64,000 nucleotides of DNA, taken from an uncultured Actinomycetes bacterium. Lineage in GTDB: Bacteria; Actinomycetota; UBA4738; HRBIN12. The position numbers and the translations under genes are program-made. The stretch spans positions 8,595-72,594 of the forward strand of contig CAWFNS010000001.1 in assembly GCA_963817235.1 (NCBI GenBank). Reading direction: 5' to 3'. Numbering within the stretch: the first letter of the stretch is position 1; the number at the start of each line of letters is the position of its first letter. Below, piece by piece: positions 16,586 to 38,001 of this stretch. Under the pieces are notes generated by a model. It saw only the letters and a program-made list of their open reading frames with translations, ran no database searches and was not told where the DNA came from.

Positions 16586-18376
16586 CCGCGGGCTCACCGA
16601 TGCGCACCGCGATGCGCTCGCACACGTGCGGCGAGCTCCGCGCGTCCGACGTCGGCGAGCGCGGTCGCGCTCTGCGGCTGGATCGCGCACCGCCGCGACC
16701 ACGGCGGGGTGACGTTCATCGACCTCCGCGACCGGGAGGGGGTGACCCAGGTCGTGTTCCACCCGGAGGACGCCCCGACGGCACACGCTGCGGCGCAAGA
16801 ACTCCGGGGTGAATGGGTCGTGCGGATCCAGGGGGCCGTCCGCGCGAGGCCCGACGGGATGGCGAACCCGGCGCTGGCCACCGGCGAGATCGAGGTGGCC
16901 GCCGCCGCGCTCGAGGTGCTGAACCGCGCCGAGACGCCACCGTTCGTGATCGAGGATCGGATCGAGGCCGACGAGCAGCTGCGCTTGCAGTACCGCTACC
17001 TCGACCTGCGCCGTCCCGAGATGACGCGGATCCTGCGGCTGCGCGCCGACGTGAACCGGATCATGCGCGAGCACATGGACGCGCCTCGGCTTCCTCGAGG
17101 TGGAGACGCCGATCCTCACGCGCTCGACGCCGGAGGGGGCGCGCGACTTCCTCGTGCCCTCACGGATGTTCCCCGGCACCTTCTACGCGCTGCCGCAGTC
17201 GCCGCAGCAGCTGAAACAGCTGCTTGATGGTCGGCGGCCAGGACCGCTACTACCAGATCGTGCGGTGCCTGCGCGACGAGACGGACGACCGCCGACCGGG
17301 GCCTCGAGTTCACGCAGCTCGACGTCGAGATGTCCTTCGCCGACGAGGACGATCTCTTCGCCGTGATCGAGCCCCTGTACGCGCGGATCATCGCGGAGAC
17401 CCAGGGCGTCGAGGTGCCCACGCCCTTCCGGCGCATGACGTTCGACGAGATGCTCGACCGCTTCGGCTCGGACAAGCCCGACCTCCGCTACGGCATGGAG
17501 CTCGTCACGCTGACCGACCTGTTCGTCGGATCCGGCTTCAACGCGTTCGCGGCGGTCGCGGACGGCGACGGCGCGATCAAGGCGCTCTCGGCGCCCGGCG
17601 GCGCGGGGCTGTCCCGCAAGGAGCTCGACAAGCTCGTCGAGGACGCGAAGGGGCGCGGCGCGGCTGGGCTCGTGTGGATCGCGGTGGAGGAGGACGGCCT
17701 GCTTCGCTCACCGGTCGAGAAGTTCCTCGGCGACGAGGAGAAGGCCGGCATCCTCGCGCGGACCGGGGCAGGGCCCGGCGATCTGATCTGCATCGTGGCC
17801 GACCGCGTCGACCGCGTGCACGTCGCGCTCGACGGGCTGCGGCGCGAGCTCGCGGTCCGGCTCGACCAGATCCCCGAGGGCCGGTGGGAGTACTGCTGGT
17901 ACGTCGAGCCGCCGCTGTTCGAGTGGAGCGACGACGAGGGGAAGTGGGTCTCGAACCACCATCCGTTCACCGAGCCGCTCACCGACGACCTCGATCCGGC
18001 GACCGCGAAGGCCCGGGCCTTCGACCTGGTCCTCAATGGGTTCGAGGTGGGCGGCGGCTCGATGAGGATCCATCGCCCCGACGTGCAGGAGCGCGTCTTC
18101 GAGGTGCTGGGCCTGACGCACGAGGAGATCGAGGAGAAGTTCGGGCACCTGCTCCGGGCGTTCCGGTACGGGGCGCCGCCCCACGGCGGCATCGCGATGG
18201 GCGTGGACCGGCTGGTCATGCTGCTCGCAGGGAAGGACGCGATCCGCGACGTGACGGCGTTCCCGAAGGCGCAGTCGGGGGCGGATCCGTTGACGGGCGG
18301 GCCGGCGCCGGTCGATGCGCGGCAGCTCGCCGAGCTGGGGATCCGTGTGGTCACGCCACCGAAGGAGGACGCATGA
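16582..18376 (+). CDS. aspS: aspartate--tRNA ligase, probably non-discriminating Asp/Asn type (about 4 frameshifts)
   Basis: [15 protein letters not shown] (His typical of non-discriminating AspRS), [45 protein letters not shown]. Confidence 0.93.
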
Positions 18377-18771
18377 GCGACGGGCTGAGCGCAGAGGACA
18401 TCGCGCTGCTGCGAGGCGAGAACTACGGCTACCTCGTGACGCTGAACGCGGACGGCACGCCCCAGGTGACCGTCACGTGGGTCGACGCGTCCGACGACGG
18501 CCACGTCCTGATCAACTCGGCCGCGGGCAGGCGCAAGGACCGGAACATGCGACGCGACCCGCGCGTGGCGGTCTCGGTGCCGCGCGGGGGGGACCCCTAC
18601 GACTGGACCTCGATCAACGGCACGGTCGAGGAGCTGATCGAGGGGGACGAGGCGCTCGCGCACATCGATACGCTCAGCCGCCGCTACGACCACGAGCCGT
18701 GGACCCCCACCGAGGGCCAGGTGCGCGTGATCTACCGGATCCGGCCCGACCGCGTCCACCGGTACCGATGA
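18373..18771 (+). CDS. PPOX-class F420-dependent (split-barrel) oxidoreductase
   Basis: LVTLNADGTPQ..TW, K.RNMRRDPRVAVS motifs. Confidence 0.85.
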   Translation: MSDGLSAEDIALLRGENYGYLVTLNADGTPQVTVTWVDASDDGHVLINSAAGRRKDRNMRRDPRVAVSVPRGGDPYDWTSINGTVEELIEGDEALAHIDTLSRRYDHEPWTPTEGQVRVIYRIRPDRVHRYR

Positions 18772-18775
18772 GCGG

Positions 18776-20053
18776 ATGAGCGAGCAGCCGCTCGCCGCGC
18801 GGATGCGCCCGCGCGAGCCCGCGGAGTTCGTCGGGCAGACGCACCTCGTCGGTCCCGGCCGCGCACTCACGAAGCTGATCGAACGAGGCGCCCTGCCGTC
18901 GCTGATCCTCTGGGGGCCGGCCGGCACGGGGAAGACCACCCTCGCGCACCTGCTGGCCGATGCGGTCGGCGCGCAGTTCACGCAGCTGTCCGCGGTCAAC
19001 AGCGGCGTCGCCGACGCCCGCAAGGTGATGGACGGCGCGCGCGGCGGCCTGTTCAAGACGATCCTGTTCGTCGACGAGGTGCATCGCTGGTCGAAAGCGC
19101 AGCAGGACGTGCTGCTGCCGGCGGTCGAGGACGGCACCGTCACGCTGATCGGCGCCACCACCGAGAACCCGTACTTCTCGTTGAACACGCCGCTGCTGTC
19201 CCGGTGCATCCTGATGCGCCTCGAGCCGCTCGCGCCCGAGGACCTGGCCGCGCTGATCCACCGGGCGCTCGCCGACGAGGACCGCGGGCTGGGCGCGCTG
19301 CATCTGGAGATCGACGCCGACGCGCTGCGAGCACCTCGTGACGGTCGCCGGCGGCGACGCCCGGATCGCGTTGACCGGCCTCGAGGCCTCGGCCCTGGCG
19401 GCGGAGGCCGCGGGCGAGACGACGATCACGCTCGCATCGGTGTCCGACGCCGTGCAGCGGACGGCCGTCGTCTACGACCGGCAGGGCGACGCGCACTACG
19501 ACGTGATCAGCGCGTTCATCAAGTCGATCCGGGGCTCCGACGCCGACGCGGCGTTGTTCTGGTTGGCGAGGATGGTGGAGGCGGGCGAGGATCCGCGCTT
19601 CATCGCCCGGCGGCTGATCGTCCACGCGTCCGAGGACGTCGGGATGGCGGACAGCCGCGCGCTGCTCGTCGCGGTCGCGGCCGCGCAGGCCGTCGAGCAC
19701 GTCGGGCTCCCCGAAGCGAGGATCAACCTCGCACACGCCACGATCTACCTGGCGCGCGCGCCGAAGTCGAACAGCGTGATCGCGGCGATCGGCGCCGCGC
19801 AGGCAGGACGCGGTCTCGGCCGATCCGGTGCCGACGCACCTGCGCGACGCCTCCTACCCGGGGGCGAAGCGCCTGGGGCACGGGAAGGGCTACGTCTACC
19901 CGCACGACCGGCCCGGGCACTGGGCCGAGCAGGAGTACCGGCCTGCCCGCTACGAGGGCACGCGCTACTACACAGCCGAGCGGCATGGGCGAGGACACCG
20001 AGGCATGGGCCCCCGGGGCGGGCCCTTCCCGGCCGGAGGCCGGGACCCGGTAG
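18776..20053 (+). CDS. rarA: replication-associated recombination protein A (about 3 frameshifts)
   Basis: [59 protein letters not shown]. Confidence 0.93.
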
Positions 20054-20113
20054 GCTAGCGACGCCGGCTGTTCCGGACCTCGACACCGTTCGACCCTGGG
20101 AGGGGCTTCGATC

Positions 20114-20536
20114 ATGACCGTTCTCGCGACCACCGGCGGCGACTGGGCGCTGATCGTCCTCGCCGCCTTCTGGGGTCTGCTCGTGTGCTTCCTCTGCATC
20201 GTGCTGTTCCGGACCTCGAGCGTCCTGGAGAGCACGAAGATGACGATCGACGAGCTCCGCGCCGAGACCGTGCCGCTGCTGCGGGAGGTCAAGTCCTCCG
20301 TCGAGCGCCTGAACCGCGAGATCGACCGCGTGGACGTGGTGCTCGAGTCCACCGGGACGATCGTGGGTCGCGTCGAGAAGCTCTCGGGCCTGATGGAGGA
20401 GGCCGCGGGGAGCCCGCTCGTGAAGCTCATCAGCTTCGGGGCGGGGCTGCGCCAGGGCGTCTCGAAGGCCGGCAAGGGCAGGGGCAAAGGCTCCGGCGGC
20501 GGGCGCTCCGGCAAGAGGTCCGGGAAGCGACGCTAG
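20114..20536 (+). CDS. DUF948 (YoxC-like) membrane-anchored coiled-coil protein
   Basis: N-terminal TM followed by a heptad-rich region; conserved position before alaS in actinobacteria. Confidence 0.7.
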
Positions 20537-20785
20537 GTGCGCCGGCTCTTCTGGCTCGCGGTCGGCGTCGGGTTCGGCGCGATGAGCGCGGTGCTGGCGT
20601 CCCGATGGACCCGCAAGCAGGTGCACCGAGCCTCGCCGCAGGCGATCGCCCGGGAGGCGCGCGGCGGCATCCTCGACCTCACGAAACTCGTCAGCGAGTC
20701 GGTCGACGAGGGCAAGCGCGCGATGGACGCGCGCGAACGCGAGCTGCGCTCGAAGCACGACGTGCCCGGCCCGGGCGCCGCCTGA
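20537..20785 (+). CDS. small membrane-anchored protein (DUF6167-like)
   Basis: MRRLFWLAVG..G N-terminus and REREL C-terminus, as in the small gene that follows DUF948. Confidence 0.65.
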   Translation: MRRLFWLAVGVGFGAMSAVLASRWTRKQVHRASPQAIAREARGGILDLTKLVSESVDEGKRAMDARERELRSKHDVPGPGAA

Positions 20786-20806
20786 CCCGCCGGTAGACTC
20801 CTCGCC

Positions 20807-23441
20807 GTGGAGGGCAGCCGGATCCGCGAAGCGTTCCTCGCGTTCTTCGAAGCGCGCGATCACGCACGCGTGCGGTCCTCGTCGTTGATCCCGCCGCCGG
20901 AGTCGGGCCTGCTCCTGACGAACGCCGGGATGAACCAGTTCATCCCGTACTTCCTCGGCCAGGCCGAGCCGCCGTACCGTCGCGCGGTCACGTCGCAGAA
21001 GGTGATGCGGACCAACGACATCGAGAACGTCGGGCGGGACGCCCGCCACCTCACGTTCTTCGAGATGCTCGGCAACTTCTCGTTCGCGGACTACTTCAAG
21101 GCCGACGCGATCGCCTGGGCGCACGAGCTCATCACCGAGGTCTACGGCATCGAGCACGACCGGCTGTGGGTGACCGTCTACGAGGACGACGACGAGGCCG
21201 CGGACGCCTGGGTCGACGGGGTCGGGGTCGCGCCCGGGCGGATCGTCCGGCGCGGCAAGCTCGACGCCCAGGGCGAGCCGGCGAACTACTGGCACACGCA
21301 CGCGGCCGGACCAGCGGGGCCGTGCAGCGAGATCTTCGTCGATCGCGGGGCCGCCCTCGGGCCCGAGGGCGGCCCGGACGTAGACGAAGAGCGGTTCATG
21401 GAGATCTGGAACCTCGTGTTCATCCAGGACCGGATCGACGGCGACCTGCGGTTCGTCGAACCGCTCCCGGCGAAGAACGTGGACACGGGGTCCTGCCTGG
21501 AGCGCGTCGCGATGCTGCTCCAGGGGGTCGACAACGTCTTCGAGACGGACCTGCTCCGGCCGGTCCTCGAGGTGGGCGAGCGCCGGTCGGGGCGGACGCA
21601 CGGCGCCGACCCGCGCGACGACGCCTCGCTGAAGATCATCGCCGAGCACGGCCGCGCAGCCACGTTCCTGATCGCCGACGGGGTGCAGCCGGCGAACGAG
21701 GGTCGTGGCTACATCCTGCGCCGCATGCTCCGGCGCGTGGTCTCGCACGCCCGACGGCTGGGGATCGAGGGCGGGATCCTCGACGACGTGATCACGACCG
21801 TCACCGATCTGTTCGGCGAGACGTACCCCGAACTCCGGGAGAACGAGGCCTTCATCCGCCAGGTCGCGGACTCGGAGGAGGCCCGGTTCTCGGCGACGCT
21901 CAAGCAGGGCCTCGTCCAGTTCGAGCGTGCGAGGGATCGCGCCGTCGATCGCCGGATCTCGGGTGAGGACGCGTTCAAGCTGCACGACACGCACGGGTTC
22001 CCGATCGAGCTGCTCGAGGAGATCGCGGCCGGCGAAGGGCTGACGGTCGACACCGACGGGTTCGCGGCGCTGCTCCAGGAGCAGCGGGAGCGCGCGCGCA
22101 AGGCCGCGAAGAAGATCGCGATCGGCCTCGACGCGGGCGCGGTCCCGCCGAGCGAGTTCGTTGGCTACACCGACCTCGAGGCCGGCTCGCCGGTCGCCCT
22201 GCTGCTCGGCGACGACGATGCGGTCCTCGACGCGGCGGAGGAGGGCGAGCCGGTCCGCGTCGTCCTGGACCGGACGCCGTTCTACGCCGAGGGCGGCGGA
22301 CAGGTCGGCGACCGGGGCACGATCCGCACCGACACCGGATCGATCCGGGTCCTCGACACGCAGCCGGCCGGCGAGCACGCGATCGTGCACGCCGGCGTGG
22401 TCGAGACCGGCGAGGTCCGGGCCGGGCAGGACGCGTTCGCGCAGGTCGACGGCGAACGTCGCGAGGCGACGGCGCGCGCGCACACCTCGACCCACGTCGT
22501 GCACTGGACGTTGAAGCACCTGCTCGGCGAGCACGCGCGGCAGGCGGGCTCGCTCGTGGAGCCGGGCCGGCTCCGCTTCGACTTCCCGAACCCGGGGCCG
22601 GTGCCGCCCGAGACGCTGGAGGCGGCGGAGCTCGAGGCGAACCGACACCTGGCCGACGACGACGCCGTGACCGCGTTCGAGACGACGCTGGACGAGGCGC
22701 GGTCGCTCGGGGCGGTGGCGCTGTTCGGCGAGAAGTACGGAACCATCGTGCGCGTCGTCGAGATCGGGGACTACTCGCGGGAGCTGTGCGGCGGGACGCA
22801 CGTGCACCGCACCGGCAGCGTCGCGGTCCTGCGGTTGCTGCACGAGGGCTCGATCGGCGCCGGCATGCGGCGCGTGGAGGCGGTCGTCGGGCCGGACGCG
22901 CTCCGCGAGATCAACGCCGAGCGCGCGCTGCTGCGCGACCTCGTGACGGCGCTCGAGTCGAAGGATCCCCGCGGCGCGCTCGACCGCGCGCGCCGGGTGG
23001 TCGAGGAGAACAAGCGGCTCCGAAGCCAGCTCGGGAAGCTCCGCGCCGGCGACCGCGACTCGCTGATCGCGTCGCTCGCCGAGGGAGCCCACGACGTCGA
23101 CGGGGTCGCGCTCGTCGTCTCGGAGGTGCCCGGCGAGGATCCGAGCGGGTTGCGGGAGCTCGCCCAGAAGGTCCGGGACAAGCTCGCGGCGCGGCCCGCC
23201 GCGGTCGTGGTCGGCAACGGTGACGGCGGCAAAGCGATGCTGGTCGCCGCGGCGACCCAGGGTGCCGTGGCGCTGGGCGTGACCGCGCCGGCGTTGCTGG
23301 AGCCCGCCGCGAAGGCGATCGGCGGCGGCGCAGGGGGCAAGGACATCCTGGCGAACGCCGGTGGGAAGGATCCCGCGGCCGTCGGCCGCGCGCTCGGGCT
23401 GGTGCCGGCGCGCCTGCGCGAGCTGCTCGGCGCGCGCATGA
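20807..23441 (+). CDS. alaS: alanine--tRNA ligase (3' end uncertain; as sequenced it reads in frame into ruvX)
   Basis: LLTNAGMNQF, HLTFFEMLGNFS, EIWNLVF, NVDTG, GRGYILRR, TPFYAEGGGQVGD, HTSTH, ELCGGTH, GGGAGG. Confidence 0.96.
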
Positions 23442-23860
23442 CCGAACGGGGCCGCGTGCTCGGCCTCGACCTCGGGGACGCGCGGATCGGCGTCGCGATC
23501 TCCGACGACGACCGGCGACTCGCCGTGCCGATCGGCACCGTGCACGTCGGCCAGCCGCCCGGCGAGCTCGTCGCGGTCGCCGAGCTCGTCCGGGAGCACG
23601 CCGCGACGCGGGTCGTGATCGGGCTGCCGCTGTCGATGCGGGGGGAGCGGGGCGATCGGGCCGGGCACGCCGAGGCGTTCGGCCACGCGCTCGGCGCGGT
23701 GCTGTCCGTGCCGATCGACTACCAGGACGAGCGCCTGAGCACGGTGGAGGCCGACCGGCGCCTCCGCGAGGCCGGCGCCGACGGCCGGCAGCGGCGGCGG
23801 GCGGTGGACGCCGCCGCGGCCCAGGTCCTGCTCCAGGCGTGGCTCGACGCCCGGCGGTGA
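23438..23860 (+). CDS. ruvX: RuvX/YqgF pre-16S rRNA nuclease
   Basis: VLGLDLGDARIGVAISD, VIGLP, DERLST, VDAAAA..LLQ.WL. Confidence 0.92.
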   Translation: MTERGRVLGLDLGDARIGVAISDDDRRLAVPIGTVHVGQPPGELVAVAELVREHAATRVVIGLPLSMRGERGDRAGHAEAFGHALGAVLSVPIDYQDERLSTVEADRRLREAGADGRQRRRAVDAAAAQVLLQAWLDARR

Positions 23861-23886
23861 GCGCGCCCGGGTATCCTCCACGGCCG

Positions 23887-24969
23887 ATGGACCGACCCAC
23901 GCCGAGCACCCGATCCGAACGCCGACGGCGGGGGGTCGGCCTGGTCGCCATCTTGGTGGTCTTCTCCCTCGTGATCGGCGGCGTCGTCACGGCGGTCGGG
24001 CGCTACCGCGGGTGCAAGCAGCCGCCCGCCTCGGGGGGCTCGGTCACGCTCGAGGTGCCCTCCGGCGCAACCGGCCGCGACGTCGCCGCGGCGTTGAAGG
24101 AGCAGGGCCTGGTTCGCTGTGGCGGCTTCCTCGGCAACCTGCTGCTGCGCGGCACCGGCAAGGCGAACGCGATCTTGGCCGGGACGTACACGCTGACGGT
24201 CGGGATGCCGCTGGAGCAGATCGTCACGGTCATCACGACGCCGCCCGCGGCGGTGCCGACCGTCCGGCTCACCGTCCCCGAGGGGCTGCGGATCACCACG
24301 ACGTTCAAGGGCGAACGGAGCATCTCGAGCGAGGTCCAGGAACAGACCGGCGTCCCGGCGGCCGTGTTCTCGAAGCTCGCCGAGAGCGGCCGATACACGC
24401 TGCCGCCGTACCTGCCGAAGGGAGCCTCGACCGAGGGGTTCCTGTTCCCCGACACGTACCAGCTCGTGAAGAAGGGCCTCACGGCCGACGTCGTGATCCG
24501 CCGGATGCTCCAGCAGTTCGACACGGAGGCCGCCGCGATCGATCTGTCGGCCGGCGCGAAGCGCCTCGGCCTCACGCCGTACGAGGTGGTGATCGTCGCC
24601 TCGATGATCGAGCGCGAAGCCCAGGTGGACGAGGAACGGCCCCTCGTCGCCAGCGTGATCTACAACCGGATCGCGCAGCACATGACGCTGGGCATCGACG
24701 CGACGCTCCTGTACGACGATCCGACGCCGGACGGCAAGCTGTCGACCGCCGATCTGAAGACGGACACGCCGTACAACACGCGGATCAATGCCGGGTTGCC
24801 GCCGACGCCGATCGCGAGCCCGGGGCGCGCGTCGCTCGAGGCCGCCCTGCACCCGGCGGACACCCGATACCTCTATTACGTGCTGTGCCCGAAGGACGGC
24901 GCCGGCGTGCAGCGGTTCGCCACCACCTATGCGCAGCACCTGCGCAACGTGCAGGAATGTCTTGGTTGA
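23887..24969 (+). CDS. mltG: endolytic transglycosylase
   Basis: N-terminal TM, TVPEG, EGFLFPDTY, ASMIERE, YNR, PYNTR...GLPPTPI.SPG. Confidence 0.93.
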   Translation: MDRPTPSTRSERRRRGVGLVAILVVFSLVIGGVVTAVGRYRGCKQPPASGGSVTLEVPSGATGRDVAAALKEQGLVRCGGFLGNLLLRGTGKANAILAGTYTLTVGMPLEQIVTVITTPPAAVPTVRLTVPEGLRITTTFKGERSISSEVQEQTGVPAAVFSKLAESGRYTLPPYLPKGASTEGFLFPDTYQLVKKGLTADVVIRRMLQQFDTEAAAIDLSAGAKRLGLTPYEVVIVASMIEREAQVDEERPLVASVIYNRIAQHMTLGIDATLLYDDPTPDGKLSTADLKTDTPYNTRINAGLPPTPIASPGRASLEAALHPADTRYLYYVLCPKDGAGVQRFATTYAQHLRNVQECLG

Positions 24970-25815
24970 CGCGATCGGCCCGGCGCCGGTCTCGGGCGGC
25001 ACGCGCACGGTCGGGCATCATCGGGTGGCCGGTCGAGCACAGCCTGTCCCCGGCGATCCACAACGCGGCGTTCTCGGCCCTGGCGCTCGATTGGATCTAC
25101 GTGCCGCTGCCGGTCCCGCCGGGATCGGCGTCGGCCGCGCTCGCGGGTCTCCGCGCGCTCGGCTTCGCCGGGGCGAACGTCACGATGCCGCACAAGGATG
25201 CCGCCGCCGAGGCGATGGACCAGCTCTCCGATGACGCGCGGCGCCTGCGCGCCGTCAACACCGTGGTGCTCGGCGCCGACGGGATGACCGGACACAACAC
25301 CGACGCGCCCGGGTTCGATCGGTTCCTGCGAGCGCGACGCGGGGTTCGAACCGGCGGGCAGGACCGCGCTGCTCTTCGGCGCGGGCGGCGCGGCGCGGGC
25401 GTGCGCGCTGGCGCTCGCGCGGGCCGAGCTCGCGCGCCTGACCGTGGCGGTGCGCGAGCCGGCGCGAGCGGACGCGCTCCGCGCGGCGCTCGACGGTCTC
25501 GCGACGGCCGTCGACGTCGTGCCGATCGAGGAGGCGCCCGGCCGTCCGGCCGACCTGATCGTGAACGCCACGCCCGTCGAGGTCGTCGCGAGCCTGCCGC
25601 CGGTCGGCGAGGACACCCTCGTGATCGACGTGCGCTACGACCCGCCGGAAACCGCGTTGCACACGGCGGCGCGCGCGGCCGGCGCGACGGCGTTCGGCGG
25701 CCTCGGCATGCTGTTGCACCAGGCGGCCCTCTCGTTCGAGCTCTGGACCGGCAGGCCGGCTCCGCTGGAAGTCATGTCGGCCGCCGCGCTGGCGGCCTCC
25801 GCCGGGCGCGGCTGA
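24962..25815 (+). CDS. aroE: shikimate dehydrogenase (frameshifts near 25015 and 25330; start approximate)
   Basis: IGWPVEHSLSP.IHN, NVTMPHK, AVNTV, NTD, GAGGAARA, VNATP, GMLLHQA. Confidence 0.92.
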
Positions 25816-25836
25816 ACGCACGGCAGCGCGCGTTCC

Positions 25837-25862
25837 CTCAAGCACGTGCGGCCTCCGCCGAT
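25837..25862 (+). promoter_or_regulatory. WhiG/FliA-type promoter CTCAAG-N14-GCCGAT
   Basis: matches the sigma28-family TAAA/CTCA...GCCGA pattern, 15 nt before ATG 25878; similar motifs at 31297 and 33919. Confidence 0.7.
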
Positions 25863-25877
25863 GCCTCGGGAAGAGGA

Positions 25878-26973
25878 ATGGACGAATATGCCGCGCTCGC
25901 TCAGCGCGTCGTCCTCACCATGGACGACGTGCGAGGTTGTTTGGTGCTGTCGAGGGACGGCATGGTCCTGGGCGCCTATCCGGAGGAGGACGAGCAGGCG
26001 TTCAAGCCGGCCTGGCTGAAGTTCGTCAACGTCGGCGAGGCTCGCCGAGGCTTCGTCGAGTTCTCCGATCAGATGTGGGCCTACGTCCATCGCGGGCCGT
26101 ACGCCGCGTTCGTCGTGTCGGGCACGGCGGTGCGTCCGGGCGTCCTGCTCGATCAGCTCGAGCAGGCGGTCCTCGCCGCCGAGGAGAGCCGCGCGAAGAA
26201 GGGTGACACCCTGAAGGTCCCCGACGCGCCCGGCGCACCGTCCGGGCGGCCGCGCACCTCACTGCATCCGCCGGCGGACCGGCCACAGGTCGCGCCGGCG
26301 ACCGCCGGGACGGCGCCGCCGCCGCAGGAACGCGCATGGGCCGGGGACCAGGCGGACATCGCCGGCGCACCGCCCCAGCGTCCGCTCGCGGACGTGGGCG
26401 CGGGTGGCGGCTCCGATCGTGCCGAGCCGCCGGAGCAACTGTCGGGGTGGCGCAGGCAGGCGCTGGCCGCCGAGCAAGGGCAGCGCGCCCCCGATCCCGT
26501 CCTGCCCCCGCCCGAGCAGCGGCCCCATCCGGACGAGATCCCGCCCCCGGACGTGACGCCCGCCGAGGCCGCCCGGATGGCCGCCCGCGAGACCGAGGAC
26601 GCAACGGCCGGCGGCCGTCCGACCGCGTTCGGGTCGGAGTCCTCGCCGTTCGCTCGCCTGGAAGCCGAATCCGCCGCCGCGGCGCTCGGGAGCGCCGGTC
26701 CGGCGGCCGTCGCCCCGCCCCCCGTCGCGCCCGCGCCGATCCGCGAGGCGCCGCCGGTCGAGATCGTGGCTCCGGCATATGCGGAGGAGCCCGCCGTCGA
26801 GGTCGAGATCCGGCGCGAGCCGCATCGAGCTCGTGTCCCCCGATCGGACGATGGACGAAGGACCCGGGGGCGACGACGAGGACGAGCTCGGCGAGGTCGA
26901 CCGCGTGATGCTGGCCAAAGAGTTCTCGGGATTGCTACAGGCAGATGGGGACGGTGACGAAGAAATCACCTGA
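25878..26973 (+). CDS. Roadblock/LC7 (MglB-like) domain protein with Pro/Ala-rich linker and acidic C-terminal motif (frameshift near 26820)
   Basis: N-terminal VRGCLVLSRDGMVLG resembles the Roadblock core; AAGAGG RBS; C-terminus DELGEVDRVMLAKEFSGLL in the shifted frame. Confidence 0.6.
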
Positions 26974-27018
26974 AGACCCCAGCCAACGGCCTAGCCCGAA
27001 CGGAACCTCGAGGGCGAG

Positions 27019-28710
27019 ATGACGACGGTCAAGCGGAAGTCGAAACAGCTCGGCCAGATCCTCATCGAGCTCGGGTACATCACGCCCGAGCAACTCGAGT
27101 CTGCGCTCGAAGAACACCGCAAGACGCCGAAGTCGCTCGGCCGCGTGCTGATCGACCTGGGGATGATCAAGGAGTCGGATCTGGTCCGCGCGCTCGCGGA
27201 GCAGGTCGGGCTCGAGTTCGTCGATCTGAGCGAGTTCCCGGTCGACGCGACCGCGACCGTGCTCCTGCCGGAATCGCTCGCCCGCCGGTACCGCGCGCTG
27301 CCGATCGGCGAACGCGACGGCCGTCTCCTGGTGGCGATGTCGGATCCCGCGAACGTCTACGCGCTGGACGACATCCGCACGATCACCGGCCGCGACGTCC
27401 AGCCGGTGGTGGCGACCGCGAACGACGTCGAACACGCGATCCAGAAGTTCGCCGGCCTCGACTCGCAGGTCGAGGCGATGGCCGACATCCTCGCCGAAGT
27501 CGGGCGACACCGAGAGCACGGAGGATCTCGAGGCGGCGCTCGAGGACGCGCCGATCGTGAAGCTCGTGAACGCGATCATGACGCAGGCGGTCGGCGACCG
27601 CGCCTCGGACGTGCACCTCGAGCCGGCGGAGCGGAACGTGCGTATCCGGTTCCGCGTCGACGGCGTCCTGCACGAGCCGATGCCGCCGGCGCCGAAGAAC
27701 ATCCAGGGCGGCCTCATCAGCCGCTTGAAGGTCATGGCCGACATGAACATCGCCGAGAAGCGCGTGCCCCAGGACGGCCGGATCTCGATGAAGGTCGGCG
27801 GAACCGCGCTGGACCTGCGTGTCGCGACGCTGCCGACCGTCTACGGCGAGAAGGTCGTGATCCGCGTGTTGGACAAGTCGAACGCGCTGCTGCGGCTGGA
27901 GGACCTCGGCTTCCTCGAAGACTCGTACAAGCGGTTCTCGGTGTCCTTCAAGAAGCCGTACGGGGCGATCCTCGTCACCGGGCCGACCGGGTCGGGGAAG
28001 TCGACCACGATGTATTCGACGCTCAACATCCTGAACGAGGAGTCGAAGAACATCATCACCGTCGAGGACCCGGTCGAGTACCGGCTGGCCGGCGTCAACC
28101 AGGTCCAGGTCAACCCGAAGGCCGGGCTCACGTTCGCCTCGGCGCTCCGCTCGATCCTGCGCGCCGACCCCGACATCGTGCTGATCGGTGAGATCCGGGA
28201 CAAGGAGACGGCCACGATCGCGATCGAGGCCGCCCTCACCGGCCACCTCGTGCTGTCCTCGCTGCACACGAACGACGCCGCCTCGGCCATCACGCGCCTG
28301 GTCGAGATGGACGTCGAGACGTTCCTGGTGGCCTCCGCGATCGACGCGGTGGTCGCGCAACGGCTCGCGCGCATGCTGTGTGAGCGCTGCAAGCAAGGCT
28401 ACGCAGCCGGAGCAGGCCGAGCTCCAGGCGGCCGGCTACCCCGAATGGCTGTGGAACGAGGTGCCCGCAGCTGTGGAAGTCGCAGGGGTGCCCGGCCTGC
28501 TCGAACACCGGCTACCGGGGCCGGATCGGCCTCTACGAGGTGATGCAGATGAGCGAAGAGATCGAACGGCTCACGGTGGAGCGTTCCTCTGCCGATGCAG
28601 TCAGAGAGGTCGCCATCCAGCAGGGCATGATGACGCTCCGCGAGGACGGCCTCGAGAAGGCACGGATGGGGATCACATCATTGGACGAGGTCGCAAGGGT
28701 GGTGAAGTGA
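27019..28710 (+). CDS. pilB: type IV pilus assembly ATPase with MshEN-like N-terminus (about 3 frameshifts)
   Basis: ASDVHLEP, RVPQDGR, GPTGSGKSTT, EDPVEY, LRADPD..LIGEIRD, CxxC...CxxC Zn motif, GYRGRIG. Confidence 0.94.
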
Positions 28711-28712
28711 GG

Positions 28713-29942
<1,230 letters not shown>

Positions 29943-29956
29943 GGGGGTGAACGGGG

Positions 29957-31163
29957 ATGGCTGAAACCTACGCCTACAAGGTCCGCGACAAGGGCGGCCA
30001 CGTCGTCACGGGCACGCTCGTGGCGGACAACGAGGCCCTCGTCCTGCAGCGCCTCCGCGAGCAGGGCTACACGCCGCTCGAGGTCGGCCGGCAGAAGCGC
30101 GGGATGAACATCGAGCTGACCAAGAAGAAGGTCAAGCTCAAGGAGATCGCCGTCTTCTCGCGGCAGTTCGCGACGATGGTCAACTCCGGCCTGCCGATCC
30201 TGCGGGCCCTCGCGATCCTGTCCGAGCAGACCGAGAACAAGGAGCTCGCCCGGGTCCTCACGGTCGTTCGGGCCAGCGTCGAGCAGGGGTCGTCGCTGTC
30301 CGCCGCCCTCGCGAAGCACCCGAAGATCTTCAACGACCTCTACGTCTCGATGGTGAAGTCCGGTGAGACCGGCGGCTCGCTCGACAGCGTCCTGCTCCGG
30401 CTCGCCGACATGATCGAGACCGAGGTCAAGCTGCGCGGCAAGATCAAGGCGGCCATGACGTATCCGGTCGCGGTCGTCGCGCTGGTCAGCTTGATCCTGA
30501 CCGCGATGCTCCTGTTCGTGGTGCCGCAGTTCAAGAACATCTACGCCGGGCTCGGCGGCAGCCTGCCGCTGCCGACGCGGATGCTGATCGGCGTGTCCGA
30601 CATCTTCAAGAACTTCTGGTACATCGTGCTGATCGGGCTGATCGTCGGCCGGTTCATGTTCCGGCGCTGGCGCAAGACGCCCGCCGGCCGCGAGGCGGTC
30701 GACGGCATGAAGCTGCGCGTGCCGATCTTCGGACAGCTGTTCCACAAGAGCGCGCTCGCCCGGTTCGCCTCGACCCTGTCGATGCTGCTGCGCTCGGGCG
30801 TGCCGATCCTCCAGTCGCTCGACATCGTGAGCGACACCGTGAACAACAAGGTCATCTCGAAGGCGATCACGGACGTGCAGGCGAGCGTCCGCGACGGTGA
30901 GTCGATGGCGAAGCCGCTCGCGCGCTACCGGGTCTTCCCGCCGATGGTCGTGCAGATGCTCGCGGTCGGGTGAGGAGACCGGCCAGGTCGACGTGATGCT
31001 CGAGAAGGTGGCCACGTTCTACAACGACGAGGTCGAGGCCTCCGTGGACTCCCTGACCTCCTTGATCGAACCGCTCTTGATCGCGGTCATCGGTGGCGCC
31101 GTGGGCGCCGCGGTGGTCGCCCTCTACATGCCGATGTTCAACATCATCAAGCTGATCCAGTAG
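29957..31163 (+). CDS. pilC: type IV pilus platform protein, GspF family (frameshift near 30970)
   Basis: FSRQFATMVNSGLP, GETGGSLD, VGEETG, EPLLI, LYMPMF. Confidence 0.94.
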
Positions 31164-31187
31164 GGCTACGGTCAGGTGGGGTCTTCG

Positions 31188-31216
31188 GGGCCCGGGGCGT
31201 CACGCGCCCCGGGCCC
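31188..31216 (+). terminator. GC-rich hairpin after pilC (12-bp stem, 5-nt loop)
   Basis: GGGCCCGGGGCG / CGCCCCGGGCCC perfect inverted repeat; no long U tract. Confidence 0.6.
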
Positions 31217-31296
31217 TTCCCACGTCCGCCCTGCGGCGGAACGCGTCCGCCCTCATCGCCACCTTCCGCCTTCTCCCCTCTTCTTCCTCGGGGGAG

Positions 31297-31323
31297 CTAC
31301 AGGTGGGGGCACCTTCGACCGAA
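31297..31323 (+). promoter_or_regulatory. WhiG/FliA-type promoter CTACAG-N15-ACCGAA
   Basis: same geometry as the 25837 and 33919 motifs with mismatches, upstream of the major pilin. Confidence 0.5.
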
Positions 31324-31383
31324 ACCTCCTTGGAACGCGCACCACGGGGGTGCGCCAAGCTCCAGGAAAGGAGGCGAAGGCAG

Positions 31384-31875
31384 ATGCTCAAGGGACTCAT
31401 GAAGCGCGTCCATGAGGACGAAGGCTTCACCCTCATCGAGCTGATGGTGGTCGTTCTGATCATCGGCATCCTGATCGCCATCGCTCTGCCGACGTTCCTC
31501 GGCGCCCGGACGCGTGCGCAGAACCGTGCCGCGCAGTCGGATCTTCGCAACACGCTCGTTGCTGCGAAGACCATCTACACGGACGCCAGTTCGTACACCT
31601 GTGCCACGGGCGCGGCCGCGGTCGCTCCGTGCACGCAGAACCTGCAGAGCGTCGAGCCGTCGCTGAACTACGTGGCCGGCGCCGCAGGCAGCGTCACCAC
31701 GCAGGTGGGCGTCTCGGTGGTCTCCGCCACGCAGTGGGCGGCGGGTCGCTGGTCCGCATCGAACAACTGCTTCTACATCTCCGATGACTCGGCGGTGGGC
31801 ACGAAGTACGGCCAGGCCGCAGGCGCCTGCGTCGCGCCGACCATGGCGCTCGCAGCCGCGGCGAGCTGGAGCTAG
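31384..31875 (+). CDS. pilA: major type IV pilin 1
   Basis: class III signal EDEG|FTLIELMVVVLIIGIL with Glu5; strong AAGGAGG RBS; 4 Cys. Confidence 0.9.
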   Translation: MLKGLMKRVHEDEGFTLIELMVVVLIIGILIAIALPTFLGARTRAQNRAAQSDLRNTLVAAKTIYTDASSYTCATGAAAVAPCTQNLQSVEPSLNYVAGAAGSVTTQVGVSVVSATQWAAGRWSASNNCFYISDDSAVGTKYGQAAGACVAPTMALAAAASWS

Positions 31876-31887
31876 ACGGCGAACGCC

Positions 31888-31948
31888 CGGCTCCTTCGGG
31901 GGCCGTGGTTCACCGAGAACGAGGGGGCGGCCTTCGGGCCGCCCCTTC
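31888..31948 (+). terminator. two tandem cUUCGg hairpins between the pilin genes
   Basis: CGGCTCC-TTCG-GGGGCCG (31888-31905) and GAGGGGGCGGCC-TTCG-GGCCGCCCCTTC (31921-31948). Confidence 0.7.
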
Positions 31949-32000
31949 GCTCATCAGGCTCCGATCACCGAGCGAGGCGATGGAAGGAGGCGATGGCAGC

Positions 32001-32486
32001 ATGCTCACGGCGTTCCGGAAGCGCGTCCGGCAGGACGACGGCTTCACCCTGATCGAGCTGATGGTCGTCGTCCTGATCATCGGCATCCTCATGGCGATCG
32101 CGCTGCCGACGTTCCTCGGCGCCCGGACCCGGGCGCAGGACCGGGCGGCGCAGTCGGACCTGCGGCACGCCCTCGTCGCCGCGAAGATCCTCTTCGCGGA
32201 CGGCAGCTCCTACGCGTGCGCGACGGCTCCTCCGGCCACGGCTCCGTGCGTCCAGAACCTGAAGGACGTCGAGTCGTCCCTGACGTACCAGGCGGCCGCG
32301 GTCGGGAGCACGCCGAACCGCGTCGGCGTGGCGGTCCTGTCGACGACGCAGTGGGCCGCCGCCCGCTGGTCGACGTCGAACACCTGCTTCTACATCTCCG
32401 ACGACTCGGCGGCCGGCACCCGCTACGGGCAGGCCGCCGGCGCCTGTGCCGTTCCCGCCGCCCAGGTGGCTTCCAGCTGGTCGTAG
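32001..32486 (+). CDS. pilA: type IV pilin 2, paralog of the upstream pilin
   Basis: QDDG|FTLIELMVVVLIIG; aligns end to end with pilin 1, including all 4 Cys; AAGGAGG RBS. Confidence 0.88.
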   Translation: MLTAFRKRVRQDDGFTLIELMVVVLIIGILMAIALPTFLGARTRAQDRAAQSDLRHALVAAKILFADGSSYACATAPPATAPCVQNLKDVESSLTYQAAAVGSTPNRVGVAVLSTTQWAAARWSTSNTCFYISDDSAAGTRYGQAAGACAVPAAQVASSWS

Positions 32487-32502
32487 CGCCCGGCCGCCAT
32501 CC

Positions 32503-33825
32503 CTAGAGCGGCCACCGAGGGAGCAGCCGGAGCCCGTCCGCCCACGTGCGCGGGATCCACACCCCGGTCCACACCGGCGCGTACGCCAGCCCGACGACGA
32601 TGGTCGCGGCCGCGAACGCCATCCCCACGCCGCGGCTCCATCCTCCCGGCAGCCGACGGAGCGTGGCCGCCAGGCACAGGCACATGAACGGGACGGCGGG
32701 CAGCATGTAGAAGATGAACTGACTCCGGGAGACGAGGAGCCAGGGCAGGAACATCGCCGCGTACCCGCCGAACGCCACCGCCTCCTGCCAGCGAGGGCGC
32801 CGGAGCGCCGTGAACGCCGCGACCGGCAGCGACAGCAGGAACCCCCACCAGAGCACCGGGTTGCCGAGCGCGACGATCTTGCTGACCGACGTGCCCCGGG
32901 TCTCGGCGAAGTACTGGATCGGATGCAGCAGCAGCGGCCAGGTCCACGGGCGCGAGTTCTCCGGCTGCACCTTCAGGTGGTGCTCCTGGTACTGGAGCAT
33001 CCGGATCTGCAACGTCACGAAGTCGTGCACGGCGAACCCGTGCTGGGAGAAGAAGGCGCCGTAGCTGACGAGGTAGACCAGCAGCGGCACGACCGCCAGC
33101 GACAGCACGATCGTCGCGACCTCTCGCGCGCGCGACCGATCCCGGGGTCCGTCGCGCCGGAGGCTCCACACGGCGCACAGCAGCACCGCCAGCGCCAGCG
33201 CGTAGAAGCCCGACCACTTCGTCGCGATCGCCGCCCCGAAGGCGACGCCCGCCCACAGGCGCCACGGTGAGCCGAAGGCCCGCGTGGTCCGGGGCCACCG
33301 CGTCGCGGCGGCCCGACCGAGCCGCTCGCGGTCCAGGACGAGGAACAGGAACCCGGCGATGATGAAGGTCGACAGGAAGATGTCGAGCATCGCCAGCCGG
33401 CTCTGGACGATGTGCAGGCCGTCGAACGCGAGCAGGACCGCCGCGAAGGCCGCCCACCCAGGGGATCCCCACAGGCGCAGGGCCAGCAGGTAGAGCAGGG
33501 CGACGCCCGCGATCCCGAACAGCGCCGAGGGGAGCCGCCAGCCGAACGCGTGCAGGCCGAGCGGCCCCACCCCCAACAGCGCGATGATCCATTTCCCCAT
33601 CGGCGGGTGGATCCACGTCCCCTCGTCGTCGATCTTGACCGGCGGCGGGTTGCCGACCGGCTGGCCGAACCCGCCATGCAGGTAGACCTCCGCGTCGAAC
33701 ACGTAGTACTGCTCGTCCCAGTACAGGCTCGGCGGGGACGGCAGCGACCACAGCCGCAGGACGGCCGCCGCCAGCAGGATCAGGCACGGGAGGGCGAGCC
33801 GCCGCCAGCCTCGGTCCTCGCCCAT
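32503..33825 (-). CDS. pmt: PMT-type (GT39, GT-C fold) lipid-linked-sugar protein O-glycosyltransferase
   Basis: YWDEQYY, HPPMGKW, GWR, DGLHIVQSRLAMLDIF, ATKWSG, S.PW.WP, GNP.LWW, QFIFY.LP; many TM helices. Confidence 0.85.
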   Translation of the reverse strand: MGEDRGWRRLALPCLILLAAAVLRLWSLPSPPSLYWDEQYYVFDAEVYLHGGFGQPVGNPPPVKIDDEGTWIHPPMGKWIIALLGVGPLGLHAFGWRLPSALFGIAGVALLYLLALRLWGSPGWAAFAAVLLAFDGLHIVQSRLAMLDIFLSTFIIAGFLFLVLDRERLGRAAATRWPRTTRAFGSPWRLWAGVAFGAAIATKWSGFYALALAVLLCAVWSLRRDGPRDRSRAREVATIVLSLAVVPLLVYLVSYGAFFSQHGFAVHDFVTLQIRMLQYQEHHLKVQPENSRPWTWPLLLHPIQYFAETRGTSVSKIVALGNPVLWWGFLLSLPVAAFTALRRPRWQEAVAFGGYAAMFLPWLLVSRSQFIFYMLPAVPFMCLCLAATLRRLPGGWSRGVGMAFAAATIVVGLAYAPVWTGVWIPRTWADGLRLLPRWPL

Positions 33826-33918
33826 GGCGACATCCTGGCATGGGCGCCCGCGCCGCCTCGGAGGTCTCGCGTCCCTCGGACGCGGTCCGGCGGCCCGTCG
33901 CAGGACCTCGGTCGACCC

Positions 33919-33945
33919 CTCAAGGGGACCCCCCGGCCTGCCGAC
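33919..33945 (+). promoter_or_regulatory. WhiG/FliA-type promoter CTCAAG-N15-GCCGAC
   Basis: near-identical to the 25837 motif, ahead of the minor pilin operon. Confidence 0.7.
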
Positions 33946-33978
33946 CACTAAGTGACGGACAGTGACAGGCGGGCCCAG

Positions 33979-35337
33979 ATGACGCGCGTACTCCAACAGC
34001 TGCGTTCCGCCTCGCGCCGCTCGGGCGACGAGGCGGGCTTCACGATGGTCGAGATGATGATGGCCATCTTCATCTTCGGCCTCGTCATCACGGGCCTCGC
34101 GGTCGGCATGGCGAGCTCGCTGAACCTGACCCGCCAGAACCGGAACCGGTCGATCGCCGCGAACCTGGCGTCCCAGCAGATGGACACGGTCCGGAGCATG
34201 GACTTCGACGACCTCAACAACGTCACGCAGCAGGCGCAGCCGACCACCTCGAGCACGAGCGTCGACGGCGTCCCCTACACGCTTCTCGCAGTACACGCGG
34301 TGGGTCTACAAGAGCGAGACCGGCGCGACCCCGGGGCCGTGCCAGGCGCCGCCCAGCACCGCGAACCCGCTCGCGTACATCTCCGTCGTGACCTCGGTCA
34401 GCTGGAACGACATGCGCGGCGTGCCGCCGGTGACGTCGAGCACGGTCGTGACGCCGCCGGTCGGGATCTACGACCAGACCGACGGACACATCGCGGCGAC
34501 GGTCCTGACCCGCGACGGTGCGCCGGCCCCCGGCGTCACGGTGTCGATCGCGTCGACCGGGGTCTCCGACGCCGCCATCACCTCGAGCGACGGCTGCGCG
34601 TTCTTCGCGTTCGAGCCGATCGGGACCTACGTGGTCACCCTGTCCGGGCGCGGGCATGGTCGACGGGCAGGGGCAACGCGGCGCCGCCCCAGACGGTCAC
34701 CGTGAAGGCCGGCTCGACGAGCACCGTCCAGTTCCAGTACGACTCCGCCTCCTCGCTCGTCCTCACGCTGCAGGGGAACGGGGGCTTCTCCGTGCCGAAC
34801 GCGGTGCCGATCTCGCTCGGCAACACGCACCTGCTGCCGCTCGGCGTGATGCCGGCCACCGGCTCCGGGAACCCGCGGACGATCACCGGCCTGTTCCCGT
34901 ACGCGGACGGCTACCAGACCTGGGCGGGCGCCTGTTCCGACGCCGATCCGCAGGGCGTGAGCCCTCTGGGCAGCGCCTACTACCCGGGCGCGACCCGCTC
35001 CGCCGCGATCGTCATGACGCCGGGCCAGAGCAGCACCGGCACCGTGCAGCTGCCGGCCCTCCAGGTCACGGTCAAGAAGAGCGGCGTCTTGAAGTCGGGC
35101 TACGCGGTGACGGCGACGCACGTCGTGCCTTCGGGCGCGACGAGCGACCCGGGGTGTCCGACCGCGGAGGCGTACACGCTCGGCACGAGCAACGGGAGCG
35201 GCCTGGTCTCGATGGCGCTGCCCTACGGCACGTGGAAGATCACGGCGACGAGCGGCGCGAGCACCGGCAACGCGAACGTGACCCTCAGCCCGCTGAACGC
35301 GAACAACCCGGCCGCACTCACGGTGAACGTCTCGTGA
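33979..35337 (+). CDS. minor pilin (PilV-like) with C-terminal Ig/carboxypeptidase-regulatory-like beta domains (frameshifts near 34280 and 34645-34675)
   Basis: DEAG|FTMVEMMMAIFIFG class III signal; downstream G.P.PGVTV and T...GCAFF...GTY.V beta-sandwich-like motifs; start could be GTG 33952. Confidence 0.75.
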   Translation: MTRVLQQLRSASRRSGDEAGFTMVEMMMAIFIFGLVITGLAVGMASSLNLTRQNRNRSIAANLASQQMDTVRSMDFDDLNNVTQQAQPTTSSTSVDGVPYTLLAVHAVGLQERDRRDPGAVPGAAQHREPARVHLRRDLGQLERHARRAAGDVEHGRDAAGRDLRPDRRTHRGDGPDPRRCAGPRRHGVDRVDRGLRRRHHLERRLRVLRVRADRDLRGHPVRARAWSTGRGNAAPPQTVTVKAGSTSTVQFQYDSASSLVLTLQGNGGFSVPNAVPISLGNTHLLPLGVMPATGSGNPRTITGLFPYADGYQTWAGACSDADPQGVSPLGSAYYPGATRSAAIVMTPGQSSTGTVQLPALQVTVKKSGVLKSGYAVTATHVVPSGATSDPGCPTAEAYTLGTSNGSGLVSMALPYGTWKITATSGASTGNANVTLSPLNANNPAALTVNVS

Positions 35338-37953: not shown

Positions 37954-38001
37954 TGCCGGGCTCCCGGAACCCCGCCTGAGCGCGCGTACGATCGGCCGGC
38001 C

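Follow-up and report, generated by a model that had tools for sequence, protein, structure and literature searches.

What does a Roadblock-like protein do at the head of a type IV pilus (T4P) operon when no small GTPase partner for it is found in its class? The question is raised by a gene at 25878-26973 (hereafter the focal gene) in a 64,000-nt stretch of DNA (the window) from an uncultured actinobacterium, where it lies directly upstream of pilB. To our knowledge, almost every role known for Roadblock/MglB proteins in bacteria is played together with a small GTPase, which is MglA in polarity systems and CvnD in conservons. An earlier, sequence-only reading of the window had given the protein a Roadblock/LC7-like domain, a disordered linker and a compact C-terminal motif, and had suggested that it could act as a polar hub, a PilB/PilT switch or an MglB-like polarity regulator. 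The explanation that we favor, with slightly better than even confidence, is a pilus-dedicated, GTPase-independent accessory protein in which a Roadblock platform is tethered to a motor-docking peptide.

The N-terminal domain was assigned from its predicted structure. An AlphaFold2 (AF2) model of residues 1-135, based on an alignment of 134 diverse family members, reached a predicted local distance difference test (pLDDT) score of 85.9 and a predicted template modeling (pTM) score of 0.74, with the topology alpha(2-14), beta(18-25), beta(30-34), alpha(36-50), beta(57-61), beta(66-72), beta(75-81), alpha(87-111). Foldseek comparison with the PDB gave 59 matches at E ≤ 1e-3, and the best 50 of these 59 were almost all members of the Roadblock superfamily (E down to 1e-5, probability 1.00, template modeling (TM) score 0.55-0.67). 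The top match was a Streptomyces avermitilis Roadblock protein (3KYE, E = 1e-5); MglB from Thermus (1j3w) and Myxococcus (6h5b/6hjm) was also matched, and the other matches listed included Asgard Roadblocks, 7f8m, 7yh1, MglC (7ct3), LAMTOR/Ragulator and dynein LC7. Model and structural search agree, at the level of a confident prediction, that this domain of ~110 residues has the Roadblock/LC7 fold, so that the sequence-only assignment to a Roadblock/profilin-like domain holds for the predicted fold. By sequence, the protein does not belong to the corresponding Pfam family: no Pfam or NCBIfam model matched the window protein at E ≤ 0.01, and only 3 of 10 distant members gave sub-threshold Robl_LC7 matches (12-16 bits, E = 0.01-0.18). 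Profile comparison by hhalign of the focal family (alignment A4) with PF03259-positive pil-linked Roadblocks (alignment A5) gave E = 1.7e-4 at a probability of about 50%, its 85 aligned columns being in the structurally correct register, and the family profile found the Roadblock 7f8m among PDB sequences at a weak E of 0.39. An earlier AF2 run on a full-length homolog, with a shallow alignment of 50 sequences, gave a pLDDT of 53 and was uninformative on the tail. In a single-sequence search, PDB entry 2o5h (a Neisseria meningitidis hypothetical protein of 136 aa) matched aa 19-79 (25932-26114) at E = 7e-6; this match weakened to E = 0.12 with the family profile, was outside the top 50 Foldseek matches, and is treated here as unexplained and not as evidence.

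The gene belongs to a large family that is confined almost entirely to one class. A word-indexed search recovered more than 689 homologs at 90% clustering, all named "hypothetical protein" and all from Actinomycetota metagenome bins, and an HMMER scan of 1.84 billion representatives gave 308 clusters at 50% identity. The N-terminal 130 residues were almost invariant among close relatives, and the ratio of nonsynonymous to synonymous substitution rates (dN/dS) of the N-domain was 0.014-0.06 at dS of 0.4-0.8; the domain is under strong purifying selection. Given the number of homologs and the dN/dS values, the gene is more than a chance open reading frame (ORF). The GTDB class of the window comprises a single order with eight families and 294 species genomes, apparently all from uncultured organisms, and the gene was found in 239 of these genomes and in 96 of the 109 high-quality ones, usually as a single copy. 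When 401 genomes across the phylum were searched with the N-domain profile, 29 of the 32 in-class genomes gave strong matches; outside the class (~370 sampled genomes) there were only six weak matches (E ~1e-4), all in one family, here called f9. An aroE-focal gene-pilB arrangement was also seen on a 4015-nt contig (L025, JBLMXP010000145.1) of a bin labeled Planctomycetaceae, which is probably mis-binned. We found the family described nowhere in the literature that we searched, and with no matching Pfam or NCBIfam model and every database name "hypothetical," the view that it is not a described T4P component was upheld.

Linkage to pilus genes was found throughout the class. The order (alaS-ruvX-mltG-)aroE-focal gene-pilB-pilT-pilC, all on the same strand, was observed in 25 of 25 near loci that reach past the gene (L009 and L024 end before pilB and were left out of the synteny count). 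The gene also stood directly before pilB in all 12 loci from families f2-f8, which brings the total to 37 of 37, and its linkage to pilB persisted where aroE was absent (L059, L061 and L064) or where there were upstream insertions (L060 and L062). Among the 16 genomes without the focal gene, 12 also were without a PilB orthologue, three had a contig that breaks off at pilB (with the C-terminal motif still visible at the break in G128) and one contained a remnant. Because of this synteny and the co-loss with PilB, the presence of the focal gene tracks the presence of this pilus system, and the pil linkage that had been read from the window alone extends to its relatives. In genome G111 (locus L083, G111:C37, 2600-2910), ~300 nt between aroE and pilB contain pieces that look like the N-terminus (MADVRGC) and like the C-terminal motif (LSLAREFGRLLQPAEDPTDG, followed by a stop), an apparent internal deletion of the focal gene with pilB kept. 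Three loci have two tandem pilB paralogs, 65-72% identical to the query PilB, right after the Roadblock gene or module (L055, 5371-8754; L056, 3180-6544; L087, 10181-13585).

The proposal that the gene heads the pil operon behind a WhiG-type promoter was also supported by relatives. The motif CTCAAG-N14/15-(C/G)(C/G)ACGATG (CTCAAG-N14/15-CGACGATG) was present at the same upstream distance in all 26 related loci, and a relaxed pattern matched twice in the window (the focal site and 47492 on the minus strand) vs. 0.4 matches expected by chance. The own genome encodes, outside the window (G000:C2:518021-518695), a sigma factor of the FliA/WhiG family (TIGR02479, 267 bits at a cut-off of 189.6), as do 19 of 21 relatives. 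The motif would thus be a candidate promoter, and the focal gene appears to be co-transcribed with pilB-pilT-pilC. One of the two relatives without the sigma factor (G279) is also without the focal gene and a PilB orthologue, which hints that sigma factor and pilus system may have been lost together.

Where upstream genes vary, the focal gene stays with pilB and not with mltG or aroE, and this argues, together with the missing PilB orthologue in genomes without the gene and with the pil-linked Roadblocks that are its closest relatives outside the class, against a non-pilus scaffold for cell envelope, division or polar growth whose tail peptide binds a housekeeping hub. Such a scaffold, which we consider unlikely, would fit the conserved alaS-ruvX-mltG-aroE neighborhood, the folded domain-linker-peptide design that is also found in FtsZ and SSB, and the control of actinomycete developmental genes by WhiG-type sigma factors.

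The architecture behind the folded domain is conserved at both of its ends. The post-domain motif (KVPDAxGAPSGRPRTSLHP) was invariant in 50 close homologs, with R.P.....P...PR..LH as the consensus of the wider family, and was predicted to be disordered by AF2 (pLDDT ~50). The linker that follows comprises ~227 aa (19% Ala, 19% Pro and 10% Glu), and composition and low pLDDT bear out its earlier description as Pro/Ala-rich and disordered. Linker length varies threefold across the class (~90-280 aa), with the short motifs SGWRRQ, SSPFARLEAE and RREPH kept at family level. The compact C-terminal motif noted before is real, though in the window it lies in another frame than the start codon (see below): its consensus, [VI]-D-(R)-[VI]-x-L-[AS]-x-E-F-[SAG]-x-[LI]-L, was kept in all eight families of the class. 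In a six-frame translation of the own genome, a hidden Markov model (HMM) of the peptide found the focal gene at E = 1.9e-11, with the next match at E = 1.3. An acidic C-terminus was present in most members across the class, and a short helix was predicted at the peptide with low confidence in the first AF2 run on the full-length homolog. A sub-clade (P0046, P0057, P0080 and others; A1 columns 160-205) carries a Gln/Met-rich linker insert, QQMQAMQEQMAAMQAQLQQ, possibly a short coiled coil, that is absent from the window protein.

A possible origin of this architecture is suggested by family f9. Three of the six weak out-of-class matches were inspected (L076-L078), and all three were pil-linked Roadblocks at the same chromosomal position, in the order alaS-ruvX-mltG-aroE-Roadblock-PATAN-GTPase-pilB-pilT-pilC. 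There the Roadblock protein is canonical (170 aa, PF03259 E = 5e-20), the PATAN/DUF4388 (PatA_N) protein has 596 aa (E = 1e-32), and the small GTPase (205 aa) matches PF03029, Ras and Arf. By precomputed gene calls, two metagenome contigs (L086 and L087) likewise carry Robl_LC7, PatA_N and GTPase genes and then pilB; the PATAN-like ORF of L086 has no Pfam entry on record. A pil-linked MglB-PATAN-MglA-like system in Actinomycetota seems to be undescribed. In all five PATAN proteins a long acidic/Pro-rich linker is followed by (S/E)VDR(A/I)xVVRELAGLFS(D/E)E, which resembles the focal EVDRVMLAKEFSGLLQxD, and some members of the focal family come closer still (e.g., TVDRVALSREFAQLFSE). When 33,545 ORF fragments from the own genome and three f9 loci were searched with the focal-motif HMM, PATAN tails ranked second to fourth (E = 0.14-0.33) and were the best non-self matches; two further PATAN proteins gave E = 0.13 and 0.55. 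Weak as each match is, chance would hardly account for an agreement in motif, in the linker before it and in chromosomal position. Genes for MglA and MglB are often neighbors of PATAN genes, and actinobacterial MglB proteins include a small clade that consists of orphans only (PMC4316618). In Synechocystis, the N-terminal domains of PilB1 and PilC are both bound by PATAN domains (bioRxiv 10.1101/2021.06.11.447907).

Partners of these two kinds were not found in the class. The PATAN domain (PF14332) was absent from all 121 genomes of the class that were searched, with positive controls in Synechococcus, Thermus and Deinococcus, and no Pfam match to it was found in the focal protein. There is no MglA in the window, as had been stated, no second PF03259 protein was found in the own genome, and PF03029 gave only a 20-bit P-loop match there, nothing convincing. 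With the pil-linked small GTPase of f9 as the query, the same 121 genomes gave only a ~720-aa ORF at 20-35 bits, probably a translation GTPase such as IF2. A Myxococcus xanthus MglA sequence, not taken from a database record and run without a positive control, had no match in 15 genomes (the own genome plus 14 relatives of high quality). A scan for PF00071 (Ras) was uninformative, its matches being solely in large ORFs and also positive in Escherichia coli and Bacillus subtilis.

Because no small GTPase of the MglA or CvnD kind was found in the own genome or in 121 genomes of the class, the MglB-type GTPase-activating protein (GAP) role on MglA to which the sequence-only reading had pointed is unlikely. 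A true GAP that sets pilus polarity through a Ras-like GTPase, encoded elsewhere or too divergent to be recognized, is in our view a very unlikely explanation. Its attractions are the predicted fold, which matches 1j3w, 6h5b and 6hjm including the long C-terminal helix, the T4P linkage, which recalls MglAB function in Myxococcus and Thermus, and the syntenic f9 locus, which does pair a small GTPase with a Roadblock protein. It is opposed by each of the GTPase searches above, namely the f9 query that found only the probable IF2-type ORF, the single P-loop match to PF03029, the MglA query that matched nothing in 15 genomes, and the confinement of Ras-model matches to large ORFs that are probably translation GTPases.

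The C-terminal peptide also could be seen as a membrane anchor. Membrane-targeting helices such as those of MinD and FtsA are basic and amphipathic, unlike the acidic focal peptide. As a separate observation, the PATAN proteins end, ~50 aa after VDRxxVVRELAGLF, in the basic amphipathic segment RKRVEDDDQVT(K/R)G(L/I)ISRLIDGVKGL (RKRVEDD..GLISRLIDGVKGL) followed by a stop. This segment, possibly a helix that targets the membrane, lies at ~10366-10566 of L076 and has equivalents in L077, L078, L086 and L087, but none in the focal family. That the focal peptide itself is an amphipathic helix tethering the Roadblock platform near the pilus base is, we judge, distinctly unlikely. L347, F351, L354 and L355 are spaced as one helix face and a short helix is predicted there, if at low confidence, but the peptide, like the tail behind it, has a strongly acidic character (E, D, E, then DGDGDEE), and the basic C-terminus of the f9 PATAN proteins would be the better anchor candidate. 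PATAN regulators do reach the inner membrane independently of PilB and PilC (bioRxiv 10.1101/2021.06.11.447907), which would suit a membrane-tethered platform.

The explanation that we favor would assign a function to each part of the protein. Roadblock/LC7 domains usually are dimeric platforms (MglB, MglC, LAMTOR and dynein LC7). The focal domain presumably dimerizes, as do all relatives of solved structure, and the dimer would offer a surface for scaffolding or localization. The long disordered Pro/Ala/Glu-rich linker would serve as a flexible tether of variable length, and through the acidic-hydrophobic C-terminal peptide the protein would dock onto a cytoplasmic motor component, most likely PilB, with PilC or PilM as alternatives. 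Docking would gate or position pilus extension with no need for a GTPase. Of the roles first suggested, a PilB/PilT switch or polar hub would be the best remaining functional guess. As to origin, the protein may be a reduced descendant of the MglB-like Roadblock / PATAN / MglA-like GTPase module that f9 has at the same locus; the Roadblock domain may have been joined to the PATAN protein's linker and docking peptide, with loss of the PATAN domain and the GTPase. Within the functional core of this explanation, we regard such a fusion history as evenly balanced between right and wrong. Only tentatively do we put forward the full form of the idea, in which the protein would be a GTPase-free relic of an MglB-PATAN-MglA polarity module formed by deletion fusion, its peptide would be a portable, so far unrecognized docking motif for the motor (PilB, PilC or PilM) that the family shares with PATAN regulators, and the class would control pilus extension by a constitutive Roadblock-tethered peptide and not by a nucleotide switch.

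Several points weigh against the favored explanation. The gathering score of PF03259 (23 bits) is not reached, with no match at this locus in the own genome, and the hhalign comparison of A4 with A5 has a probability of only 49.6%. The matches between focal motif and PATAN tails are short and individually weak (E = 0.13-0.55, 11-13 bits), and the five PATAN proteins, being mutually homologous, amount to about one independent observation. Cyanobacterial PilB is bound by the PATAN domain itself and not by a tail peptide. The MglA query did not come from a database record and had no positive control. Finally, the conserved housekeeping neighborhood alaS-ruvX-mltG-aroE leaves room for a role that goes beyond the pilus.

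The protein described above is not encoded in one frame in the window as given. The window comes from a metagenome-assembled genome (MAG) of 3.0 Mb in 13 contigs, scored 76% complete, and has a G+C content of 70-75%. The ATG at 25878 opens a frame reading MDEYAALAQRVVLTMDDVRGCLVLSRDG..., and this start is supported by the N-terminus MDE(Y/F)AALA, invariant across all homologs. The span 25878-26973 has 1096 nt, which is not divisible by three: the frame from 25878 reads into ...REPHRARVPRSDDGRR... (its end also ...REPHRARVPRSDDGRRTRGRRRG...) and stops at 26957, and the C-terminal ...DELGEVDRVMLAKEFSGLLQADGDGDEEIT ending at 26973, the motif DELGEVDRVMLAKEFSGLL and the stop at 26971-26973 are all in the +1 frame. 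As a single gene, the span put forward by the sequence-only reading therefore stands as to a real gene, its ATG and its C-terminus, and fails in that two frames had been bridged across an unremarked frameshift.

The frameshift was placed by aligning 17864-34983 of the window to L003, a contig with 95.2% identity from a MAG assembled out of short reads by MEGAHIT. Besides the base at 26827, ~15 isolated 1-nt insertions inside reading frames were found over these 17 kb, always with the extra base on the window side and at a rate of approximately one per 0.5-1 kb, and intergenic stretches showed clustered short indels in both directions. The insertions within reading frames fall in aroE (25012 and 25331), pilB (27500, 28403 and 28467), pilC (30971), the minor pilins (34281, 34645 and 34674) and genes further upstream. 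Single-base insertions were seen over 19327-34968, including 19327, 19802 and 23435, and genes of the alaS region are broken too. In L003 each equivalent is one ORF (alaS, 877 aa; aroE, 283 aa; focal gene, 8001-9089; pilB, 562 aa; pilC, 401 aa). Intact orthologs of the focal protein, P0002 (95% identical, 362 aa) and P0003 (93%, 366 aa), align end to end and put the shift between ...REPH and (Q)LVSPD.... Since the genes broken by insertions are all intact in L003, the frameshift is, by comparison with relatives, most probably an assembly error. A programmed frameshift was ruled out, as close relatives encode the protein in one frame. The insertions also explain why the T2SSE model matches pilB in two frames and why PilC appears truncated, and the completeness estimate of 76% may be partly their product. 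ORF-based readings of this window or MAG need frameshift-tolerant methods.

The same data bear on the idea that the frameshift is real and that the focal gene is a pseudogene in a decaying pil locus. In no single frame does the window as given encode the whole protein, breaks occur in several pil genes (pilB three times, and pilC), and relative G111 has a genuine-looking internal deletion. Yet the same type of 1-nt insertion breaks aroE twice and genes upstream, the extra base is, within reading frames, always in the window at the rate given above, and the MAG is only 76% complete despite its 13 contigs. A second long-contig assembly (L001) has alaS, aroE and pilB broken and the focal gene intact, and, the indel aside, the sequence is under strong purifying selection. 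Decay of the locus is thus highly improbable.

Table 1 Features of the focal gene, the surrounding pil locus and the related modules of other genomes (positions are those of the window unless a locus is named)
Feature	Position	Strand	Basis or remark
Candidate sigma28/WhiG-like promoter motif, CTCAAG-N14-GCCGATG	25837..25863	+	Between aroE stop (25815) and start codon
Shine-Dalgarno-like purine-rich GGGAAGAGGA	25868..25877	+	Directly 5' of ATG; read from sequence
Roadblock/LC7-fold domain (predicted), aa 1-111	25878..26210	+	AF2 fold, Foldseek, hhalign, dN/dS
Post-domain linear motif KVPDAPGAPSGRPRTSLHP, aa 113-131	26214..26270	+	Alignments
Pro/Ala/Glu-rich disordered linker, frame of 25878	26271..26826	+	Composition, low pLDDT
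Extra G, shifts frame +1	26827..26827	+	Alignment to L003, GCATC[G]AGCTC vs. GCACC-AGCTC; most probably assembly error
Linker end in +1 frame, ...LVSPDRTMDEGPGGDDEDELG	26828..26892	+	+1 translation aligns with intact homologs
Conserved C-terminal peptide EVDRVMLAKEFSGLLQ	26893..26940	+	Invariant in close homologs
Acidic tail ADGDGDEEIT and TGA stop	26941..26973	+	Read from sequence
pilB, assembly ATPase with MshEN / c-di-GMP-motif N-terminus	27019..28710	+	Pfam, NCBIfam; split over three frames here
pilT, retraction ATPase	28713..29942	+	TIGR01420 4.7e-146; coordinates from L003 10826-12055
pilC, platform protein	29957..31163	+	T2SSF and PilC models; frameshift at 30971
Two pilins	After pilC		Window mapping
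PMT-type glycosyltransferase	Between the two pilins and minor pilins	Antisense	
Minor pilins	After glycosyltransferase		
pilD	37954-38775		
pilM	39185-40228		
pilO	40851-41489		pilN-sized gap between pilM and pilO
aroC, aroK, aroB	After pilO		
Pil-linked Roadblock/PATAN/GTPase modules	L076 8217-13504; L077; L078; L086 7001-12297; L087 7001-11893		

The remaining pilus genes are listed in Table 1. With pilM, pilO (and a pilN-sized gap between them) and pilD present downstream, a role of the focal protein as a replacement for PilM/N/O was ruled out. The T2SSE match to pilB is divided between frames, and the PilB N-terminus (27019-27200) matches MshEN and NF053729, an MshE-related motif that binds cyclic di-GMP (c-di-GMP; E = 1.5e-20); judged by these matches, the pilus motor probably is c-di-GMP responsive.

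Comparison with known systems sets out what is shared and what is particular. SSB and FtsZ have the same three-part design, with free linker length and a conserved terminal peptide, and the SSB tip is acidic-hydrophobic like the focal peptide; there is no kinship of sequence or fold, and the analogy is one of mechanism only. MglB (1J3W, 6H5B/6HJM) has the same predicted fold with a C-terminal helix and is likewise genetically linked to T4P function. It differs in that no cognate MglA-type GTPase was found in the class, that the Pfam model is blind to the focal sequence, and that MglB lacks the disordered tail of 90-280 aa and the conserved C-terminal peptide. CvnB (S. avermitilis 3KYE) is the best structural match and comes from the same phylum, but the focal gene has none of the CvnA, CvnC and CvnD neighbors of the cvnA-cvnB-cvnC-cvnD conservon operon and has T4P context in 37 of 37 loci. 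The f9 module occupies the identical position (X in alaS-ruvX-mltG-aroE-X-pilB-pilT-pilC), its Roadblock protein is the sole match of the N-domain profile outside the class, and its PATAN protein combines an acidic/Pro-rich linker of some length with a peptide, VDRxxxVRELAGLF, that resembles the focal motif. It consists, however, of three separate genes (PF03259 Roadblock, PATAN and GTPase), whereas the focal protein is without PATAN domain, GTPase partner and basic C-terminal helix. MglC (7CT3), which is among the fold matches, has a Roadblock fold without being a GAP, and works by binding MglB and RomY within a GTPase polarity module (PMC4719450). Of the partners of MglC, neither a second PF03259 protein nor MglA was found in the own genome, where RomY was not searched for. 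The orphan actinobacterial MglB clade (PMC4316618) likewise is without an adjacent GTPase.

The fold, and the theme of a Roadblock protein near pilus genes, are already known; new are an orphan state that extends through the class, a conserved peptide on a tether, and the resemblance of this peptide to the tails of PATAN proteins. A Roadblock-fold protein is near-universal in a class-level lineage of uncultured soil Actinomycetota, locked to pilus motor genes, with no GTPase found, and the family, which has no annotation and forms at least 300 clusters at 50% identity, merits a database model. If the favored explanation is true, the lineage would show, as an experiment made by nature, how a Roadblock platform works alone, and the peptide would be a candidate motor-docking element in common with PATAN regulators. 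The focal protein then would also offer a first regulatory handle on the T4P of barely studied monoderm actinobacteria.

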